Shown here in pieces: positions 11,848-55,271 of a stretch of DNA of 64,000 nt. Position numbers and translations under genes: made by a program. The number at the start of each line of letters is the position of its first letter. The stretch's first letter is position 1. A model generated the notes under the pieces. That model saw only the letters and a program-made list of their open reading frames with translations. It was not told the DNA's origin and did not search any database. Source of the stretch: an uncultured Gammaproteobacteria bacterium (GTDB lineage Bacteria > Patescibacteriota > Patescibacteriia > Magasanikbacterales > GWA2-37-8); assembly GCA_964496095.1 (NCBI GenBank), contig CAZBWU010000002.1, positions 15,595 through 79,594 of the forward strand, given 5' to 3'.

Positions 11848-12237
11848 CTATGCCAAACCCAAAGCCGGCTTAACATGTCTCATATCTTTTTCCAAAACTT
11901 CAACTCTGTCTGTCAGATTTTTTTGATCATGGGCTAACAGGGTTTGCTCTTCGTCTTTTTTGGTATATAAACCAACAATTTTATCTAAGGTGTTCATTAT
12001 TTTTGACATATCTTCTTTTGTAGCCATGTTATCCAAAACATAATCAAGCTTCTCGCTATGTTCCGCGACTGTGCGAGCCAAAAAATCAAGCTTCTGATCA
12101 TGATCTTCAAGCTTGTCATCTATTTTATCAAACTTTTTATCTATGTTATCAAACTTAAAAACAAACTCTTCAAGTTTGTTATCTATTTTATCAAATCTTT
12201 TTTCTTGTTCCATAAAATTTGTCCCAATTTTTAACAC
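11848..12237 (-). CDS. Hypothetical coiled-coil protein with FDKIDxKLE-type repeats
   Basis: 129 aa with repeated FDKIDNKLEEF / FDNIDKKFDKIDDKLEDH units. No recognisable domain. Confidence 0.4.
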   Translation of the reverse strand: MLKIGTNFMEQEKRFDKIDNKLEEFVFKFDNIDKKFDKIDDKLEDHDQKLDFLARTVAEHSEKLDYVLDNMATKEDMSKIMNTLDKIVGLYTKKDEEQTLLAHDQKNLTDRVEVLEKDMRHVKPALGLA

Positions 12238-13629: not shown

Positions 13630-13643
13630 ATAAATAAGGTATC

Positions 13644-13719
13644 TGTCATCCTGAATGAAATGAAGGATCTCTGTCTCAATCACCGCCGGACAGAGATTCT
13701 TCGCAAGCTCAGAATGACA
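13644..13719. repeat. MITE/REP-like palindromic element copy E3, 15 nt upstream of the RNase J-like start
   Basis: tgtcatcctgaatgaaatgaaggatctctgtc ... ccggacagagattcttcgcaagctcagaatgaca. An open reading frame is retained through it. Confidence 0.75.
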
Positions 13720-15145: not shown

Positions 15146-15153
15146 ATTTCAAC

Positions 15154-15299
15154 TGTCATCCCGAGCGAAGCCGCTCCTGCGGCTGACGAGGGATCTAAAC
15201 ATTAATTTTAATTTAATGAATAGATTCCTCACACCTAAAGGGGGTTCGGAATGACAACGACCAACCGGACAGAGATTCTTCACTCCGTTCAGAATGACA
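15154..15299. repeat. Composite MITE/REP-like elements E4 (full unit plus half unit) between the stop of the previous gene and murJ
   Basis: tgtcatcccgagcgaagccgctcctgcggctgacgagggatct ... ggttcggaatgaca, followed by accaaccggacagagattcttcactccgttcagaatgaca. Confidence 0.75.
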
Positions 15300-15333
15300 A
15301 GGAACAAACCAGATAGATACAAAAAATAAAAAT

Positions 15334-19303: not shown

Positions 19304-19460
19304 CGTGCCTGCCAAAGCTAACTATTACTAACCTTGTTAAAATCTGTACTATGAAACATAAAACCATAAAAAGAATCTGGATTGTAATTTCTTTCATTGC
19401 TATTCTGGCGATGCTAGTTTTTTCTTTCCTACCCGCACTACAATACTAATTTTTAACAAA

Positions 19461-19538
19461 TGTCATTCTGAGCAAAGCGAATAATCCCTGTCCAACGAAA
19501 CAACCGGACAGAGATCCTTCACTGCGTTCAGGATGACA
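19461..19538. repeat. MITE/REP-like palindromic element copy E5, ending 5 nt before an ATG
   Basis: tgtcattctgagcaaagcgaataatccctgtcc ... ggacagagatccttcactgcgttcaggatgaca. The terminal AGGA may serve as an SD surrogate. Confidence 0.75.
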
Positions 19539-19543
19539 AATAT

Positions 19544-31974: not shown

Positions 31975-31985
31975 ATGTTTTTTAT

Positions 31986-32071
31986 TGTCATCCCGAGCGA
32001 AGCCGCTTTTGCGGCTGACGAGGGATCTATACTTTAATGAATAGATTCCTCACACAAGGTTCGGAATGACA
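31986..32071. repeat. MITE/REP-like palindromic element copy E6, between the rplI stop and the pyrG start
   Basis: tgtcatcccgagcgaagccgcttttgcggctgacgagggatct ... ggttcggaatgaca. Confidence 0.75.
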
Positions 32072-36070: not shown

Positions 36071-36229
36071 ATTATCTTGTTGGCTATTGGCTAAAAAGCT
36101 ATTTTAAGTTAGTATATTAAGATATAATCACCATTCACTCAAAAAAGCCTGTAAACATTCTTTTTATTCGCTTCATGATGATTATAAGTATATTATAAAA
36201 GTCCGGCTAAGTCAAAGCAAAAAAACTCA

Positions 36230-36315
36230 CCTATTTCGTTATATGGGCTAAAAGCCCATATATTCTCATTCGCTCAAAAATTTGTAGCGAGCTACATATT
36301 TTTTCACTCATTTCG
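36230..36315 (+). promoter_or_regulatory. Conserved ~85-nt leader/upstream element, copy 1 (ATATGGGCT-AAA-AGCCCATAT ... CTCATTCGCTC ... hairpin ... CACTCATTTCG-N3-ATG)
   Basis: Nearly identical elements occupy the same position relative to the start codon at 48939-49027 (hrcA) and 39051-39130. It contains a perfect 9-bp palindrome and a small hairpin with compensatory changes between copies. Confidence 0.5.
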
Positions 36316-36318
36316 ATT

Positions 36319-37704
36319 ATGGAATACCCTGGAACCAAATTTACCCGCCCCATTCGCGTTGCCTTACTTCTTAGCTTAATTGCTCTATTTTTGATTATAT
36401 CCCCCCTTCTAATTATGTATACGGCTGGCTACCGCTATGACTGGAAAAATGGCCTGCTCAAAGAAACTGGCGCCATCAACATTGACCTGGAACCAAAAAC
36501 AGCAATGGTCTACCTCAATAATGTCAAACTACAAGATAAAATTCCGGTTCGCTTAAACAATATTATCCCTGCCAAATATAATGTCCGTGTCACAAGTCAA
36601 GGCTATTTTGATTGGAACAAAGAAATAGAAGTCAAAAATAAACAAACAAACTACATCAAAGAAATCAGCTTACTCAAAAAAAATAAACCTGAAATTTTAA
36701 TTACCGGAGAAATAAATAATTTTGCAGTTTCTTACGATGGCCAATTTATCATTTATACCACCATAGAAAATGGTGACAATGAAATTTGGCTCTGGGATAA
36801 TAATACCAAACAAACCAATAGTTTATTTCGCCTTCCAGGCAATACAAAAATAAACATAGCTTGGGCGGAAAAAAATAATTACGTTTTAATTACAGACTCT
36901 GCCACCCCTTATTATCAAATAAGAATTATAAACGCGCTAGACTCGCTCAAACAAATAGACTTAACCAAAGAAAGTTTATTTATAAATAAAATCCAATGGG
37001 CAAACACATCTGACCCTCAATTGTATTACAGCACTAAAGAAAAAATTCTTTCCTACTCCCCTATTACCCAAACAAGTCAAACTATTAGCGCCAATAATTA
37101 CGCCGACTGGTACATGGAAAATGCCCAATTATGGACAATGCAGACAGATTCATCTACCAAGGACTACATAATCACCAAAGACACTTTGGGCTTTAGTAAA
37201 ATCTTAAAACAAATTAAAGATAGTGAGATAAAACTAACTACTGATATAGATCCTAAAGAAAAAGAAGTTAAAATCGGTTTTGCAGTTGCCAGACAAAACA
37301 GCGCCCTAATCAAAACAAACACAAATGGAAAAATGCTTTTGGTAAACAATAACGTAGTCCTACCAATGCAAGTAAGTAAATTTTTAATTTCAAAATATAA
37401 TAACTGGTGGCTTATGTGGTCTGACTGGGAATTGTGGAGCTATAATGACAATGAGAATCCATACTTACTCAATAGGTCTGGCGAACACCTGACTGACACT
37501 TTGCCTTTGGATCAATATAATACTTTGGCACTCGTCTGGGCAGACAAAGTCACCGCCCTCTTCCCTTACTACTCTGTGAGTCATGATTTAATAAGTGAAA
37601 AAATATCAAATCCCATTGCTGATACAGACAATAAAATTTTGTATTTTATAGAGAGCAATAGCCAGACAAAAAATAATAATGGAATTTGGAAATTAAACTA
37701 TTAA
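36319..37704 (+). CDS. Membrane-anchored PEGA-domain / beta-propeller (TolB-like) hypothetical protein
   Basis: N-terminal TM helix, a PEGA-like segment (PKTAMVYLNNVKLQDKIPVRLNNIIPAKYNVRVTSQGY) and W/Y-rich repeats (DGQFIIYTT...NEIWLWD). Confidence 0.5.
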   Translation: MEYPGTKFTRPIRVALLLSLIALFLIISPLLIMYTAGYRYDWKNGLLKETGAINIDLEPKTAMVYLNNVKLQDKIPVRLNNIIPAKYNVRVTSQGYFDWNKEIEVKNKQTNYIKEISLLKKNKPEILITGEINNFAVSYDGQFIIYTTIENGDNEIWLWDNNTKQTNSLFRLPGNTKINIAWAEKNNYVLITDSATPYYQIRIINALDSLKQIDLTKESLFINKIQWANTSDPQLYYSTKEKILSYSPITQTSQTISANNYADWYMENAQLWTMQTDSSTKDYIITKDTLGFSKILKQIKDSEIKLTTDIDPKEKEVKIGFAVARQNSALIKTNTNGKMLLVNNNVVLPMQVSKFLISKYNNWWLMWSDWELWSYNDNENPYLLNRSGEHLTDTLPLDQYNTLALVWADKVTALFPYYSVSHDLISEKISNPIADTDNKILYFIESNSQTKNNNGIWKLNY

Positions 37705-38231: not shown

Positions 38232-39047
38232 TTAGATTGATGGGGTAGTAGCTGGTGCTGGAGCCTTAACAGTTACTAATTTTGTTTTGATAACTGTATT
38301 AAGATTTGTATTAACAATACCGTCTACTCTTACTGTACTACCAACTTTTAAGTCGGCAAAAGCAATTGCAGTGTTGGCATTGTTAATTCTGGAAACAAAT
38401 TTTGTATCAGCGTCTGTTTTTACAGTCAAAGTTTTGTCGCCTTGTTTGAAGACAAAAGTCTTATTAACTGCATCTAGACTTACTACTTCGCCTTTCTTAC
38501 TAGAAATCATGTGGATAGAATTGTCTTTAACAGCGGTCACAGACAAAGATCCATCCTTGTTGAATTTAGCTACGATTCTTAATTCGTCACCAACACTCAT
38601 ATCAGACAATTTCATTTTTCCAAAGAATTCTCTGACAAATGTGGTTTTCTTGGTAAGGGTTAAAACAAGGTTGTTGCCTACCACTGGATAAACTACTGCT
38701 GGATCAACTATTTTAGAAGATTTTTTTGGTAACACACTTGTCACATTTACTGTAACTGTGGTGGAAGTTGTAGTAGAAGTGAATTCAGATACTGCGCTGG
38801 CTGTAACTAATTTTCCAACAAAAGTGAGGGTGCGAGGAGTAAATCTTAATGATTTTTCTAAGTCTTTTCTCTTTTGATCATCATTTCTGCGATCTTCCTG
38901 TCTATCCTCACGTCTATCTTCTTGTTTTTTTAACTCTGAAATTTCACGACCACGATTTTCTTGTTCACTATTTTGTGAAGCCAAGGCCGGAGCCACCGAC
39001 ATTAAAGCCATCACTGCGACTAAAGATCCTATTATATATTTTTTCAT
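38232..39047 (-). CDS. Secreted hypothetical protein with a charged RED-rich linker and a T/V-rich beta C-terminal domain
   Basis: Signal peptide (MKKYIIGSLVAVMALMSVAPALA), a QEDRREDRQEDRR linker and repeated T/V-rich strands. Sits downstream of the ECF sigma and anti-sigma-like pair. Confidence 0.5.
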   Translation of the reverse strand: MKKYIIGSLVAVMALMSVAPALASQNSEQENRGREISELKKQEDRREDRQEDRRNDDQKRKDLEKSLRFTPRTLTFVGKLVTASAVSEFTSTTTSTTVTVNVTSVLPKKSSKIVDPAVVYPVVGNNLVLTLTKKTTFVREFFGKMKLSDMSVGDELRIVAKFNKDGSLSVTAVKDNSIHMISSKKGEVVSLDAVNKTFVFKQGDKTLTVKTDADTKFVSRINNANTAIAFADLKVGSTVRVDGIVNTNLNTVIKTKLVTVKAPAPATTPSI

Positions 39048-39050
39048 ATA

Positions 39051-39130
39051 CGAAATGAGTGAGGAAATAAATTAAATGTTGTTAATTTATTCCGAGCGAA
39101 TGAGTATATATGGTTTACCTATATACAGAT
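39051..39130 (-). promoter_or_regulatory. Conserved leader/upstream element, copy 3 (more diverged)
   Basis: On the minus strand it reads ...ATATAGGTAAACCATATATACTCATTCGCTC ... hairpin ATTAA-caacat-TTAAT ... CACTCATTTCG-TAT-ATG. Confidence 0.45.
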
Positions 39131-39235
39131 TATAATTAAATTTAATTAAATACTTTTACTCAGACTGTTTATCGACCTCTCCTCCTCCATCCCGACTCAG
39201 TCGGAACCAGAGAGTTAAACAGTTAAAACTTATTT

Positions 39236-40015
39236 TTAATCCCCATCATGTCCGTCTCCTTTTTCCAGACGAGAATCGTTTCGCAAACCAGATCTATCCC
39301 CTCTTTTTTCAATCTTTTTATCTTCTAACTCTTGCAATTTTTCAGCTCTATTTTTTATAATCTCAGAGGCTTTATCTAATCTTTCTCTTCTTTTTTCTAA
39401 TCTTTGTTCGATTTTAGCCTTAACTTCTTCTTGAAATTTATTATCTTTTATTTCCACTTGATCTAGATTTTCCTTAAATTTTTCTAATCTATCTTCGGCT
39501 TCTTGGATTGATTTGTCTATGTTTTCTATTCTGGCATCAATTTTTCTATCCTTTTTAATAAACGCTTTTTTGGATTCTAAATTTGTTGCTTCTGTCGAGG
39601 TGGCGTCCTCTTGTTCTGACTCAACGCTTTGATCTTCAACTTCATTTTTCTTTATAATTGCCCTTTCAGCTTCTCGACGCTCAATTTTCTTTAGGAGAAA
39701 CTTTGCTTTCGCTTCAGGAGTTATCTTGGTAATTTCTTCTACATTCTCTATCACTTTTTTTACTGGATATAGGATATTACCTTCGGTTACATCTGGACTG
39801 TTGTAGGCATAGGCACCGCCACTTCCTACCAGAACTAGAACTACTACTGCCATCGCTCCGGCTCTGTACATAATACTAGAATGAATCCAGCTTACTTTTC
39901 CATATTTTGCATCCCAAGCTTTATTCAAATCTTTTTGTAAGCTAGCTTTAAAAACAGTACTTGGAGATAAACTTCTTTTTATTTTAAATAAATTGTACCT
40001 TGTTTTTAATGACAT
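39236..40015 (-). CDS. Membrane-anchored coiled-coil protein, putative anti-sigma factor (DUF5667-like context)
   Basis: 259 aa with a single TM helix (AMAVVVLVLVGSGG), a charged coiled-coil ectodomain, and a start 5 nt after the ECF sigma stop. Confidence 0.4.
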   Translation of the reverse strand: MSLKTRYNLFKIKRSLSPSTVFKASLQKDLNKAWDAKYGKVSWIHSSIMYRAGAMAVVVLVLVGSGGAYAYNSPDVTEGNILYPVKKVIENVEEITKITPEAKAKFLLKKIERREAERAIIKKNEVEDQSVESEQEDATSTEATNLESKKAFIKKDRKIDARIENIDKSIQEAEDRLEKFKENLDQVEIKDNKFQEEVKAKIEQRLEKRRERLDKASEIIKNRAEKLQELEDKKIEKRGDRSGLRNDSRLEKGDGHDGD

Positions 40016-40019
40016 ATGA

Positions 40020-40544
40020 TTATGATTTGGTAGATAGCTTCTTAATAGCTCTGTGAGCTGCGACCTTAACGGCCGTCTCTGTCGTTTGCTTCATCTCTGC
40101 TATCTCTGCATAACTATACCCGAGCAGGTAGTGAAAGGTTACAATTTCCCGATCATCATCGGCTAAACCGGCCAACAAATCCTCTAATTCTCGCTTTTTT
40201 TCTTCATTTTTAAACGATTTAATGGCTGATTTTAGCCAAAAACTATCATCAGACTCTTCCTCGTCCTCAGGCAAATGGTTGGTCGGCTTTTGATCCCGCC
40301 AATGGTTAGCTAGGTGATTTTTGGTAATAGTCATTATCCAGGCAGATTTGCTTAATTCTTCGTTATAACTGCCAAAATGCTCCAGGGCTTTCATAAATAC
40401 CTCTGAAACTAGGTCCTGAGCCAGGTCTTTATTTGCACCAACACGAAAAAAGACAAAGCGATACACTTTGTCTATGTGAGTATTATAAAACTTCTCAAAT
40501 TCTTTTTTTGTATTCTGGCTTTTCATGGTAAAAGTATACACCAA
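40020..40544 (-). CDS. RNA polymerase sigma-70 factor, ECF subfamily
   Basis: Region 2 (YRFVFFRVGANKDLAQDLVSEVFMKALEH) and region 4 HTH (REIVTFHYLLGYSYAEIAEMKQTTETAVKVAAHRAIKKL); 174 aa. Confidence 0.8.
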   Translation of the reverse strand: MVYTFTMKSQNTKKEFEKFYNTHIDKVYRFVFFRVGANKDLAQDLVSEVFMKALEHFGSYNEELSKSAWIMTITKNHLANHWRDQKPTNHLPEDEEESDDSFWLKSAIKSFKNEEKKRELEDLLAGLADDDREIVTFHYLLGYSYAEIAEMKQTTETAVKVAAHRAIKKLSTKS

Positions 40545-40574: not shown

Positions 40575-40750
40575 TGTCATTCTGAATCCCCTCAAGGGGA
40601 TAAACCCCATAAAGAATCCCTGTCTAAACAATGTCATTCCCGCAAAAAGCGGGAATCCAGACAATTCAATTGAACGCTGGATCCCCGATCAAGTCGGGGA
40701 TGACAACGAACAAACCGGACAGAGATCCTTCGCTGTCACTCAGGATGACA
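40575..40750. repeat. Tandem cluster of three or more MITE/REP-like palindromic units (E7) between the dnaJ stop and the ECF sigma start
   Basis: tgtcattctgaatcccctcaaggggataaacccc..., then tgtcattcccgcaaaaagcgggaatccagacaa, then ...gatccccgatcaagtcggggatgacaacgaacaaaccggacagagatccttcgctgtcactcaggatgaca. Confidence 0.7.
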
Positions 40751-48257: not shown

Positions 48258-48938
48258 TTAAATAATTTCAAGTAACTTTTTAATCAAACCAAAATTATAT
48301 TTATAATCCATTCTCTTTGGACCCAAAAGAGTAATCATGCCTTCTTTGCCAAACCGAGCCGAGACCACACTTAGCATCTCATCAAACGGATTTTCGCTAC
48401 CGATAAAATATCTTGGCGAATCTTCTACTTTATCAAAAAAATCTTCCAGATAATCCTCGCAATGGTCAAACATTTGCGAAATAGCAGAGACTGTTTTTAA
48501 ATTTTCAAACTCTGTTTTATTAAATAAATTGGATAAGCCAGTATAATAAACTCTCTCCGGAGAAAAAGCAATAATTACAGTTTCGTTAGAAAGTTCGGTA
48601 GCGGCCTTGGCAATATTCTTGCGTGAAAGTTCGTAATCCTGGTCTTCCTCAAAAGAATCGAGCAAAATCTTAGAATCATTTTTTGAAATATGACTTTTTT
48701 CCAAATTAATACGGCTCACGTAATGACGATAACCTTGCTCAGTTGGAATTCTACCAGCGGAAGTGTGGGGATGAGTGAGATACCCACCTTCTTCTAGAGC
48801 ACGCAACTCATTGCGTACTGTAGCCTCACTAAAATCTAAATCACCAAAAGAAACCAAAAATTTTGAACCGATTGGTTCGGCATTTTTGATATAACTTTCA
48901 ATGACTAAGGTTAGTAATTCTTCTTGGCGAGGATCCAT
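48258..48938 (-). CDS. hrcA: Heat-inducible transcription repressor HrcA
   Basis: Winged-helix N-terminus (MDPRQEELLTLVIESYIKNAEPIGSKFL) and an HrcA C-domain. The track ORF extends to a GTG at 49049, but that stretch overlaps the promoter, CIRCE and the conserved leader, so an ATG near 48938 is preferred. Exact base coordinates here are uncertain by about 1 nt. Confidence 0.8.
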   Translation of the reverse strand: MDPRQEELLTLVIESYIKNAEPIGSKFLVSFGDLDFSEATVRNELRALEEGGYLTHPHTSAGRIPTEQGYRHYVSRINLEKSHISKNDSKILLDSFEEDQDYELSRKNIAKAATELSNETVIIAFSPERVYYTGLSNLFNKTEFENLKTVSAISQMFDHCEDYLEDFFDKVEDSPRYFIGSENPFDEMLSVVSARFGKEGMITLLGPKRMDYKYNFGLIKKLLEII

Positions 48939-49027
48939 ATTCGAAATGAGTGAAAAAATATTGAGCTTGCTCAAATATTTTTGAACGAATGAGAATATAT
49001 GGGCTTTAGCCCATATAACGAAATGGG
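48939..49027 (-). promoter_or_regulatory. Conserved leader/upstream element, copy 2, in the hrcA 5' UTR
   Basis: On the minus strand it reads ...TTATATGGGCT-AA-AGCCCATATATTCTCATTCGTTC ... TTGAGC-aa-GCTCAA ... CACTCATTTCG-AAT-ATG. Confidence 0.5.
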
Positions 49028-49042
49028 GTGAATAATAACAAA

Positions 49043-49069
49043 TTATCACTCAACGCTTGTGAGTGATAA
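49043..49069. promoter_or_regulatory. CIRCE operator (HrcA binding site) TTATCACTC-N9-GAGTGATAA
   Basis: Matches the CIRCE consensus TTAGCACTC-N9-GAGTGCTAA at 8/9 positions in each half, symmetrically. Overlaps the -10/TSS of the promoter upstream of hrcA. Confidence 0.7.
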
Positions 49070-49096
49070 TATAACACCGGTTTAAAGAAGTGTCAA
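49068..49096 (-). promoter_or_regulatory. Sigma70-type promoter TTGACA-17-TATATT driving the hrcA operon
   Basis: On the minus strand, TTGACA (plus-strand 49091-49096), a 17-nt spacer and TATATT (plus-strand 49068-49073). Confidence 0.55.
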
Positions 49097-54231: not shown

Positions 54232-55271
54232 CCCAAATTATGCAGAAAATCCATCACTATTTTTTCCACATCATCGGCGGTTTTTGCGCCTTCCATCAGC
54301 CTAACCCGAAGTTCTTTAGCTCCGTCAAATCCATTGACATAAGCCTTATAATGTTTTTTCATGATATCAAAATTTTTATAGTCTCCCAGGACTTTTTCAA
54401 ACAAATGTGTATGCTCTACCATCACCATAAGTTTCTCCTCAACACTCGGCGTTGTCATCCTGAACGGAGTGAAGGATCCCTTAAACTCAGACGATAGGGA
54501 TTCTTCATTTCTCTCAGAATGACAACCGGAAAAAAGCCAGGGATTACCGAAAATCCCTCGACCAATCATCACGCCGTCTGCGCCGGTTTGTTTTACTCTT
54601 TCTTCAGCCTCGGATAAATTTTTGACATCACCATTCCCTAAAATCAAAGTCCTACTTTCTGAACTATCATATTTATTTCTAATCTCAACAGCATCTTTGA
54701 CAGTTTCCCAATTGGCAGGAACTTTGGACATCTCTTTGCGCGTACGAGCGTGCACAGTAATTGCAGCTGGTTCAGTTTCCAACAAGTACGGCAACCACTC
54801 AGACAAAGTATTTTTGTTATAACCGATTCTAGTTTTGACTGACACTGGCAAATTACCCGCTCCACGTTTAGTTTCTTTGATAATCTCTTGAGCTAACAAT
54901 GGGTGCTTTATCAGGCACGCTCCCCCGCCCTGTTTTTCTACATTTCTGTCAGGACAGCCCATATTAATATCAATTCCATCAAAACCAAGTTCTTGAATGA
55001 GCAATGCTGTTTTATAAAAATTCTCAGGATTGGAACCAAAAATCTGCGCCACAATTGGACGCTCTGCTTCGCTATACATAAAATCTATCAGAAGTTTGTC
55101 TCGGCCAGCTGAGACCAACCCATCACAAGCTACAAATTCGGTCCACATGACGTCTGGTTTACCGTATTTGGCAATTACACGTCGAAAAGCAGCGTCCGTG
55201 ACATTAGCCATCGGCGCCAAAACAAAAATTGGCTTTTTTAGTTTTTGCCAAAAGCCTGTGTGCATATGCAT
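54228..55271 (-). CDS. dus: tRNA-dihydrouridine synthase (Dus family) carrying an in-frame 24-aa insertion derived from a palindromic repeat
   Basis: TIM-barrel Dus motifs (LAPMANVTD, catalytic Cys region NMGCP, GADGVMIGRGIFGNPWLF). The segment SGCHSERNEESLSSEFKGSFTPFRMTTP is encoded by repeat E8 (54453-54524). Confidence 0.85.
   Translation of the reverse strand: MHMHTGFWQKLKKPIFVLAPMANVTDAAFRRVIAKYGKPDVMWTEFVACDGLVSAGRDKLLIDFMYSEAERPIVAQIFGSNPENFYKTALLIQELGFDGIDINMGCPDRNVEKQGGGACLIKHPLLAQEIIKETKRGAGNLPVSVKTRIGYNKNTLSEWLPYLLETEPAAITVHARTRKEMSKVPANWETVKDAVEIRNKYDSSESRTLILGNGDVKNLSEAEERVKQTGADGVMIGRGIFGNPWLFSGCHSERNEESLSSEFKGSFTPFRMTTPSVEEKLMVMVEHTHLFEKVLGDYKNFDIMKKHYKAYVNGFDGAKELRVRLMEGAKTADDVEKIVMDFLHNLG
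54453..54524. repeat. MITE/REP-like palindromic element copy E8, lying within the dus coding sequence (72 bp, in-frame)
   Basis: tgtcatcctgaacggagtgaaggatccc ... gggattcttcatttctctcagaatgaca. Confidence 0.8.

Follow-up and report, generated by a model that had tools for sequence, protein, structure and literature searches.

Introduction

Short structured intergenic repeats such as Correia/NEMIS of Neisseria and ERIC, RUP and BOX of enterobacteria and pneumococci are non-coding, occur in dozens to hundreds of copies, lie near gene starts and are co-transcribed. None of these families is known from the Patescibacteria (candidate phyla radiation). Genomes of these bacteria measure about 1 Mb and contain hardly any non-coding DNA, and to our knowledge almost nothing has been learned of their mobile DNA or of how translation starts there without Shine-Dalgarno (SD) sequences. 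Here, we analyze a leader of about 85 nucleotides (nt) that precedes three genes in a 64,000-nt stretch of a Magasanikbacterales genome (assembly GCA_964496095.1, contig CAZBWU010000002.1, positions 15,595 to 79,594 of the forward strand), which we call the window. An earlier note on this DNA had read the leader as an RNA element shared by hrcA, a PEGA-domain gene and a secreted protein gene. We find a covarying hairpin repeat that occurs at scattered loci, is present at some orthologous sites and missing at others, keeps a fixed register to start codons and is situated 3' of promoters or between cistrons. With moderate confidence, we read it as a dispersed non-autonomous repeat of the MITE (miniature inverted-repeat transposable element), REP or BOX kind, which becomes part of the transcript as a 5' leader or as a spacer between cistrons and restores the start of the gene.

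The likeness to Correia/NEMIS, ERIC, RUP and BOX lies in long imperfect hairpins, subfamilies, presence or absence between relatives and, for BOX, a modular or tandem build. There is no sequence similarity. Unlike these repeats, the element stands in a fixed register to the start codon, with the ATG at +4 in 75% of copies, and it restores the start context. It conserves mismatched boxes within its hairpin, not long terminal inverted repeats, and a TA duplication is not demonstrable.

IS200/IS605 elements and the REP/RAYT system share with it imperfect hairpins flanked by short conserved single-stranded segments, a strand (here strand S) complementary to the flanking target and to the element's own 3' end, and strand- and orientation-specific insertion; self-targeting would yield tandem arrays. 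The element differs in pairing over 7 Watson-Crick base pairs (bp) rather than 4-5 partly non-canonical contacts, and a single guide would be needed for both ends. REP sequences usually lie 3' of genes, and the variable hairpins and conserved linkers of the element are the reverse of REP. Derivation from REP/BIME-RAYT or IS200/IS605 was rejected, as the element lacks a GTAG motif and combines variable stems with conserved linkers; no genome-wide search for a Y1 transposase was made.

Two kinds of RNA element also resemble it. Phage T7 RNase III hairpins and organelle tRNA punctuation or t-elements are conserved intercistronic internal-loop hairpins that define the 5' end of the next cistron, and mitochondrial punctuation releases leaderless mRNAs. 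The element differs in being optional at any gene and not tRNA-shaped, and its cleavage is hypothetical. As in translational riboswitches and protein-dependent leaders, the 3' strand of a closing helix holds the start codon and a competing upstream hairpin takes the other strand. It differs from them in that it is not conserved at orthologous genes and has no coherent regulon, no Rfam match and a purine-poor core. An integron attC site was rejected on the ends, which read TATAWWC and GWWTATG with no GTTRRRY, and on copies inside housekeeping operons such as rplN-rplX. The element belongs to none of these systems by sequence or defining motifs, and it is distinct from all of them in that the 3' end of the unit is the start-codon context of the gene it precedes.

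Three copies in the window share an architecture that ends at the start codon

The window (38% G+C) contains three intact copies, each ending 3 nt 5' of a genuine ATG (Table 1), and the common architecture that the earlier note had seen before these start codons is present at all three sites as described. The parts follow one order: a palindrome, (A)TNCTCATTCGYTC, a copy-specific hairpin, and CACTCATTTCG-N3-ATG. When the copies are aligned, likeness starts about 90 nt 5' of the ATG and stops at the ATG. The exact 11-mer CACTCATTTCG occurs three times in the window, solely at copies 1-3, and 0.00 occurrences of the palindrome pattern are expected in window shuffles. A perfect 9-bp palindrome had been claimed for each copy; it is perfect (9+9 bp) in copies 1 and 2, with a 2-nt loop in copy 2, and imperfect in copy 3. 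The genes that follow encode a PEGA-domain protein, a short HrcA (226 amino acids, aa) and a DUF5666 protein. Together with the G+C content and later matches, the DUF5666 and DUF5667 genes and the short HrcA assign the window to the Patescibacteria, near Magasanikbacteria.

One genome per species was scanned with the exact pattern CTCATTCGYTC-N20-45-CACTCATTTCG. L-numbers (e.g. L012) denote fetched loci. Beyond what the earlier note contained, the analysis brought out a helix of the bases 5' of CTCATTCG with G-WW-TATG (start codon inside), a decayed fourth unit, half-units and the size of the family. The covariance model R1, run on the window with filters off, finds copies 1-3 at 62-83 bits and the decayed unit upstream of copy 1.

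Covariation defines an irregular rod and a competing hairpin

Each unit consists of a small hairpin (hp1) and then an irregular hairpin of about 30 bp, made of a 7-bp helix (P1), two pyrimidine-rich boxes (box5, CUCAUUCGYUC; box3, YUCACUCAUUUCG) and a variable stem (P2). The boxes are joined by at least three covarying cross-pairs. P1 forms between the hexamer on the 5' side of box5 (consensus TATAWW) and the hexamer that follows box3 (W'W'TATG); its 3' strand, which includes the start codon, reads G-WW-U-AUG. Across 118 copies, the variable P1 positions are paired in 77% and 90% of cases, compared with 40% and 49% when partners are shuffled. The seventh pair, C1 of box5 with G13 of box3, also covaries (CG 17, UA 5, GC 1, UG 1 and CA 2 in non-consensus copies). 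In lineages of higher G+C, P1 has another sequence yet is paired: GCTTC/GAAGT in Uhrbacteria, AAATCG/CGACTT and CTAGAC/GTCTG. P2 measures 8-14 bp (mean 11), and its pairs are almost all Watson-Crick.

When P1 and P2 are taken together, 90% of cells are paired and double changes occur at 15/15 pairs, although the 118 copies fall into subfamilies and these counts do not equal independent events. None of 500 shuffles matches the observed pairing, and slid controls reach 38-52%. The compensatory hairpin changes reported in the earlier note are therefore real, and the hairpins listed there are the tips of the longer P2 stem. Covariation of P1 and P2 likewise supports its view that a structure, rather than a plain palindrome in double-stranded DNA, is conserved.

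An all-against-all scan of box positions in 24 variant copies returned exactly three nested pairs (1:13, 4:9 and 8:5). At 4:9, A-U changed to G-C four times, and at 8:5, G-C changed to A-U four times. These results indicate that the core is an irregular rod of about 30 bp, not two stems flanking an open loop.

We give almost no credence to a double-stranded DNA site, whether a repressor-bound operator or a promoter that drives leaderless transcription. TATAWW 5' of box5 does resemble a -10 box, and there are two or three direct repeats of CTCATT(T)CG. However, TATAWW ends in A as often as in T (58 vs 48), the higher-G+C lineages have other sequences there that still pair with the 3' flank, the stems change sequence and keep their pairing, and the length of the hp1 loop varies between copies. 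Sequence reading and a consensus scan found no sigma-70 -10 hexamer in box3, 6-11 nt before the ATG, nor any -10-like hexamer at that distance inside the element. A promoter within the element was rejected on the same base counts and on the P1 variants that contain G+C.

In about 70% of the 118 copies, hp1 pairing takes up positions -8 to -3. Because the 3' arm of hp1 overlaps the 5' strand of P1, hp1 and P1 are mutually exclusive. When hp1 is part of the folded sequence, 75/118 copies are predicted to form hp1 plus P2 and leave the AUG unpaired, and P1 appears in the minimum free energy (MFE) fold in 15/118; the isolated core, without hp1, folds into P1 plus P2. For the window copies, the hp1 plus P2 MFE fold has a z-score of about -4.1.

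Two exclusive folds could serve a host cis-regulatory switch, the main rival to a mobile repeat and one that we consider unlikely. In such a switch, a factor acting in trans, which might be a protein, a small RNA, a small molecule, the ribosome or S1, would bind the paired boxes, stabilize P1 and thereby sequester the AUG; in its absence, hp1 would take up strand S and free the AUG. Many housekeeping genes would come under global translational control, with mobility merely distributing the module. Several features speak for it: two mutually exclusive pairings of one strand are conserved, P1 is paired at -1 (77%) and -2 (90%) where hp1 pairs only 22% and 45% of copies, P1 takes in the AUG in 75% of copies, conservation of the boxes is strong, and there is an orientation bias of about 87%. 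Tandem units could bind the factor cooperatively, and stand-alone copies followed by terminator-like hairpins (L074, L041) could be decoys. Against it, hp1 is far more stable than P1, there is no Rfam family, and the boxes are purine-poor, which is unusual for a small-molecule aptamer. The distribution of copies among relatives, described below, bears on it further.

Other roles for the structure were also considered. With regard to an RNA thermometer of the fourU or ROSE type, the AU-rich P1 pairs the AUG, but the family is not confined to heat-shock genes. An intrinsic terminator or attenuator was rejected, since P2 is AU-rich and followed by YUCACUCAUUUCG; in a loose terminator scan hp1 of copy 1 alone passes, and TTCTCATTCG comes after this hairpin. 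A leader peptide was rejected as well, because the ATG-GGC-TAA mini-open reading frame of hp1 is found in only about 20/112 copies and 60% of copies have no upstream ATG.

The repeat is dispersed through Magasanikbacteria

The exact-pattern scan returned at least 117 blocks of 8 kb in 45 assemblies; three matches are due to chance and about 42 assemblies are genuine. The earlier note had named a restriction to the three window copies, without relatives, as an outcome that would refute its proposal; this is clearly not the case. Among the matches listed, the most blocks from one genome is 14, and the genuine hosts are mostly Magasanikbacteria, the others being unnamed Patescibacteria and one Uhrbacteria and one Berkelbacteria genome. 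Within these loci, R1 detects about 28 more copies that carry 1-3 box substitutions or are more strongly decayed. P2 sequence types are shared by different genes in different species. The distance between copies is 0.35 within a genome and 0.38 between genomes, which points to an old family of slow turnover rather than a recent burst.

At the gathering threshold, Rfam 15 reported tRNA alone in the window, and at permissive E-values the segment 36200-36340 yielded mere noise, with scores up to 17 bits where the cut-offs are 47-102. A known RNA family (riboswitch, leader, ribozyme or small RNA) was rejected on these results. IMG/VR gave two doubtful matches only as a sign of phage carriage, and literature searches on the box sequences, translation in the candidate phyla radiation and structured RNA found no description of the element.

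Some copies depart from the common form. Variant units of about 105 nt, with an insertion or branch of about 35 nt in P2, occur at L094 4999-5103, L092 90-195, L002 4301-4406 and L018 2858-2964. In L047 (7231-7410, minus strand) and L073, from a metagenome-assembled genome (MAG) of higher G+C, the unit is enclosed in a longer inverted repeat (GCGCGTATCTG ... CAGATACGCGC) and lies about 60 nt before an open reading frame (ORF) for a small membrane protein, a context unlike that in Magasanikbacteria. Many MAGs that bear the element (L009, L013, L014, L018-L022 and others; CAY*/CAZ*) are titled 'uncultured Gammaproteobacteria' or 'Candidatus Udaeobacter' (DATION01). These titles are probably wrong, as the contigs are AT-rich and their gene content is Patescibacteria-like.

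Orthologous sites are filled in some species and empty in others

We compared eight leaders of hrcA orthologues (HrcA identity 55-94%) and found the element in 0/8. In 7/8 of these element-free leaders, the operator TTATCACTC-N9-GAGTG(A/C)TAA stands beside the -10 box; the L128 locus begins too late to show it. The relative with 94% identity has a gap of 18 nt between the operator, a variant of CIRCE (controlling inverted repeat of chaperone expression), and the ATG. At the position of the element, L124 and L129 have a different palindromic repeat. The orthologues thus keep the promoter and CIRCE (visible in 7/8) without the element, and the family precedes diverse housekeeping genes. The element is therefore not a regulator specific to hrcA and the two envelope genes, and the heat- or envelope-stress regulon of the three genes implied in the earlier note is not supported. 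A CIRCE/HrcA operator (TTAGCACTC-N9-GAGTGCTAA) within the element was rejected, because the CIRCE-like site is separate and is kept in relatives that lack the element. In the window, the CIRCE variant (49043-49073, minus strand) overlaps the -10 box of hrcA and is conserved across Magasanikbacteria (L123-L127, L129, L130), whose HrcA proteins are uniformly short (226-228 aa).

Occupancy is patchy at other genes as well. The element is present at rplX in L012 and L031 and absent in L034 and L105; at rpsE it is present in L105 and absent in L012. It precedes rplQ in L039 and not in L018 (83% identity) or L103, rplT in L077 and not in L002 (90% identity) or L041, and recA in L088 and not in L013 (83% identity). 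For eno, the filled locus is L092 and the empty one L080; for ssb, L064 and L081 are filled and L008 is empty. A gene-specific cis-regulatory leader was rejected: the helices covary, but the element is absent from the eight hrcA orthologue leaders, its occurrence is patchy and the downstream genes are unrelated. Nothing shows gene-specific regulation. Patchy occupancy even at 83-94% protein identity, which implies that no gene depends on the element, also weighs against the switch described above, as does a functionally incoherent gene set.

The rplN-rplX junction provides the cleanest pair of filled and empty sites. The empty junction reads TAA-T-ATG, and the filled one TAA-TATATG-(hp1 loop)-CCATATAAT-core-ATT-ATG. 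By sequence, the old rplX start context appears to persist as the 5' arm of hp1, with a new ATG at the right end. In L031, TATATG (hp1 5' arm) compares with ATTATG (3' flank). L069 carries a reversed copy in the same junction, and a reversed copy within an operon is a further difficulty for the switch.

Two or three units stand in tandem before ftsA-like, ssb and tdk-like genes, and many single units are preceded by a decayed box3, including window copies 1 and 2. The half-unit that adjoins hp1 of copy 1 on its 5' side is probably a leftover of an older upstream unit; the same junction occurs in tandem arrays elsewhere. The half-unit before copy 2 lies between CIRCE and hp1. In the rpoA leaders of L018, L039 and L103, there is a conserved hairpin, GGAGGGGACACCCCC; the repeat lies between this hairpin and the ATG in L018 and upstream of the hairpin in L103, and is absent in L039.

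Units sit in a fixed register to genuine start codons and downstream of promoters

In 89/119 copies, the ATG lies at +4. In the other copies, the ATG is 8-18 nt further on, or the unit is followed by the next tandem unit, a tRNA or nothing recognizable. Pfam profiles (L24, L34, L17, L11, L20, S5, RpoA, RecA, SSB, enolase) align from residues 1-3, so the start codons of these genes are true ones, and the hrcA ATG is a real start because HrcA homologues are also 226 aa, with 100% coverage. The fixed register proposed in the earlier note therefore stands. Genes that follow family members encode ribosomal proteins or are rpoA, recA, ssb, eno, pgk, adk, glycosyltransferase genes and others.

SD-like motifs precede 4/61 window genes and none of the three leaders has one, in agreement with the earlier note. 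Pairing of an alternative SD with an anti-SD was rejected for the lack of SD sequences in the leaders and their near absence among window genes. No 16S gene lies within the fetched loci. Window genes start in the context WWT-ATG (T at -1 in 53/61 genes; W at -2 and -3), which is the same as the P1 3' strand; 9187 (minus), 28654 (minus) and 14474 (plus) are examples. The earlier note had suggested that the element defines the ribosome loading site, but most window genes start in this context without it. Extended -10 boxes (TGnTAnAAT) peak 6-11 nt 5' of the ATG (23/145), so leaderless or near-leaderless mRNAs (2-4-nt leader) appear to be common.

An SD-independent translational enhancer seems to us very unlikely. 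In this reading, the pyrimidine-rich boxes, unpaired between the hairpins, would attract S1 or the 30S subunit to the AUG next to them, much as the rpsA leader does in E. coli. It would suit a genome without SD sequences, carriers that are highly expressed (ribosomal proteins, rpoA, eno), and an MFE fold in which box3 and the AUG are single-stranded between hairpins. It leaves P1 and cross-box covariation unexplained, does not fit patchy occupancy, and meets the about 13% of copies that are not upstream of a same-strand gene. We also know of no complementarity to rRNA regions from outside this clade.

About 87% of copies are co-oriented with the downstream gene; the remaining about 13% are antisense, convergent or stand-alone. 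A same-strand gene lies upstream of 62 copies, with a median distance of 45 nt from stop codon to core, and in these the intergenic space is hp1 and core only. In 17 cases, an extended -10 box lies upstream of the unit, 60-180 nt before the ATG. The hrcA copy and these 17 are 3' of recognizable sigma-70 or extended -10 promoters and should therefore be transcribed. For hrcA, where promoter and CIRCE-like site both lie upstream, this agrees with the earlier note, which had placed the copy inside the transcript.

Berkelbacteria copies match tRNA ends

Two Berkelbacteria units (L045, L083) end 1-2 nt into tRNA-Ile and tRNA-Val. Their hp1 5' arm copies tRNA nucleotides 1-7 (CGGTCTG) or 2-7 (GGCTCT), strand S is complementary to it, and the tRNA 5' end itself serves as the 3' strand of P1. 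The relation of the three strands thus matches that in Magasanikbacteria, with unrelated sequence; its recurrence here counts in favor of the switch.

These cases also bear on a punctuation element, the next rival and one that we think quite improbable. Here, RNase P, III or Y would cut the rod where box3 meets P1, or the RNA would cleave itself there; the downstream cistron would be freed with a 3-4-nt leader and could be translated like the leaderless mRNAs common in this lineage, and hp1 and P2 would remain on the upstream fragment as protective 3' hairpins. The 3' boundary of the element is the mature tRNA 5' end within 1-2 nt in both Berkelbacteria cases and lies 3 nt before the AUG in 75% of copies. 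Most copies are intercistronic, and the peak of extended -10 boxes shortly before ATGs suggests that leaderless starts are normal. The rod of P1, boxes and P2 also resembles the internal-loop hairpins cut by RNase III in phage T7 early RNA and in the Correia repeats of Neisseria. However, tRNA adjacency is not general: the remaining tRNAs of the same Berkelbacteria cluster are without the element, and a metagenome scan for the element abutting tRNA gave chance-like matches only. A metagenome scan of 16S 5' ends found no copy within 30 nt, there is no match to a known ribozyme family, and genes without the element start in the same context. The 16S, tRNA-abutting and tRNA-cluster negatives also led us to reject the element as a general marker of stable-RNA 5' ends. 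Switch and punctuation could each coexist with mobility.

A repeat proposed to rebuild the start of the gene it precedes

Like a MITE, the element is short, non-coding, multi-copy, dispersed and present or absent at orthologous sites. Its core ends are complementary over 7 bp (P1), yet they covary rather than forming a fixed transposase-binding sequence as in the terminal inverted repeats of MITEs. The hp1 5' arm repeats the 3' flank (L045, L083, L031) and is a candidate target-site duplication.

From these observations we infer a mechanism of mobility and possible effects on RNA. The repeat would spread at the DNA level by structure-dependent (single-strand) insertion into a heptamer at a gene start, to which the internal strand S would pair. 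One copy of the heptamer would be left on the left side as the hp1 5' arm and another regenerated on the right, such that the gene keeps a working start; the unit would persist because the start is rebuilt. After insertion, it would be transcribed as a 5' leader or intercistronic spacer. In RNA, it would mainly form hp1 and P2; box3 and the AUG would then stay unpaired, which is compatible with initiation without an SD sequence. In the alternative rod, P1 would pair the AUG, and the RNA may therefore tune translation or stability. Such insertion would account for the fixed ATG register, the orientation bias, the half-units, the reversed copy, the tRNA cases and the lack of a theme among host genes, and also for the tandem arrays, because each unit ends in its own target.

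Several observations weigh against insertion as the explanation. No transposase or recombinase was found among ten small ORFs scanned in the window, a search that did not extend to whole genomes. Strand S is variable and matches its own flanks, including two tRNA 5' ends, which is not easily squared with a fixed guide, and this variability fits selection on RNA structure equally well. Conservation of the boxes and P2 types across about 42 species and the co-orientation bias suggest purifying selection and a role at the host or RNA level, with the RNA or the hairpin itself under selection. Box invariance in the collected set is by construction, as the search pattern fixes both boxes. The filled and empty pairs are different species, the duplication is not crisp and exact boundaries cannot be set. 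A recent transposition burst was rejected, since no near-identical whole units were seen within a genome. Finally, the strand count of G-U against A-C (42 vs 29) does not separate an RNA from a DNA hairpin.

A more specific version, which we regard as improbable, is a new kind of guide-directed mobile cassette that targets gene starts via a 7-nt internal strand, which would pair with the first heptamer of a gene (G-WW-U-AUG or tRNA nucleotides 1-7), and whose P1 may mark RNA cleavage at box3/P1. The gene would stay intact, with the cassette as its leader. If true, cleavage at this junction would yield near-leaderless mRNAs in a bacterium without SD sequences. If the insertion model is true, the repeat does no damage to its target gene because it restores the gene start. 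In each genome the repeat fills the 70-110 nt ahead of dozens of start codons and misleads annotation and motif searches by mimicking a regulon signal. It also gives a handle on SD-less or leaderless initiation and operon processing in an uncultivated phylum, and the covariance model and the filled and empty pairs make these ideas testable on existing metagenomes and metatranscriptomes.

Positions in the window and neighboring features

Table 1. Positions of the repeat units, their parts and adjoining signals in the window. R1, covariance model.
Feature	Position	Strand	Remark
Decayed fourth unit, upstream of copy 1	36120-36188	+	R1, filters off: 17.6 bits, E 0.019, full-length match
Box3-like half-unit CTCACCTATTTCG, 5' of copy 1 hp1	36226-36238	+	2 mismatches
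Copy 1 hp1 TATATGGGCT-AAA-AGCCCATATA	36240-36262	+	10-bp hairpin, 3' arm overlapping P1 5' strand; within MFE fold
Copy 1 palindrome ATATGGGCT-AAA-AGCCCATAT	36241-36261	+	
Copy 1 strand S (P1 5' strand), TATATT + C1 of box5	36259-36265	+	covaries with +1 to +6; C1:G13 closing pair covaries
Copy 1 ATTCTCATTCGCTC	36262-36275	+	
Copy 1 box5 CTCATTCGCTC	36265-36275	+	cross-box pairs 1:13, 4:9, 8:5 from all-against-all scan
Copy 1 P2 hairpin, tip GTAG-cgag-CTAC	36276-36302	+	covariation and fold
Copy 1 box3 TTCACTCATTTCG	36303-36315	+	cross-box pair scan
Copy 1 11-mer CACTCATTTCG	36305-36315	+	
Copy 1 P1 3' strand, G-ATT-ATG incl. start codon	36315-36321	+	covariation; P1 in isolated-core MFE fold
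PEGA-domain gene, ATG 36319	36319-37704	+	
Copy 3, whole unit, before DUF5666 gene	39045-39125	-	R1 82.9 bits; core z-score -4.65
Copy 3 hp1	39125-39105	-	imperfect
Copy 3 imperfect palindrome TATATAGGT-AA-ACCATATATA	~39125-39105	-	
Copy 3 strand S	39110-39104	-	
Copy 3 ATACTCATTCGCTC	39107-39094	-	
Copy 3 box5	39104-39094	-	
Copy 3 P2	39093-39064	-	
Copy 3 box3	39063-39051	-	
Copy 3 11-mer CACTCATTTCG	39061-39051	-	
Copy 3 P1 3' strand	39051-39045	-	
Copy 3 ATG	39047-39045	-	
Copy 2, whole unit, before hrcA	48936-49017	-	R1 73.3 bits
Copy 2 hp1	49017-48996	-	
Copy 2 palindrome	49016-48997	-	2-nt loop
Copy 2 strand S	48999-48993	-	
Copy 2 ATTCTCATTCGTTC	48996-48983	-	
Copy 2 box5	48993-48983	-	
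Copy 2 P2	48982-48955	-	
Copy 2 box3	48954-48942	-	
Copy 2 11-mer CACTCATTTCG	48952-48942	-	
Copy 2 P1 3' strand	48942-48936	-	
Copy 2 ATG (hrcA)	48938-48936	-	
Box3-like half-unit TTCACCCCATTTCG, between CIRCE and copy 2 hp1	49019-49032	-	not in 94%-identical orthologous leader L123
CIRCE-like operator TTATCACTC-N9-GAGTGATAA	49069-49043	-	upstream of copy 2, outside repeat
hrcA promoter, TTGACA, 17-nt spacer, TATATT	49096-49091, 49073-49068	-	outside repeat

Copy 3 sits in an apparent operon (38232-40526, minus strand) of an ECF-type sigma factor (Sigma70_r2 and r4_2; 40020-40526), a DUF5667 protein (39236-40015), possibly an anti-sigma factor, and a DUF5666 secreted protein (38232-39047), between the DUF5667 and DUF5666 genes.

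The window also contains a second, unrelated palindromic family, TGTCATYCTGARCRRAGYGAAGRATC ... GATCCTTCRCTNCGTTCAGGATGACA, together with a TGTCATCCCGAGCGAAGCCGC...GACGAGGGATC type. Copies occur at 603-644, 2588-2623, 13640-13677, 15254-15300, 19450-19542, 40704-40735 and 54451-54535, and also at 15147-15206 and 31979-32038; they often stop 5-20 nt 5' of an ATG. It is this family that takes the place of the element in the hrcA leaders of L124 and L129. Tandem repeats with a 21-nt period (ATCAARCTT...) lie at 12043-12205, within an ORF (11848-12213, minus strand) that has no Pfam match.

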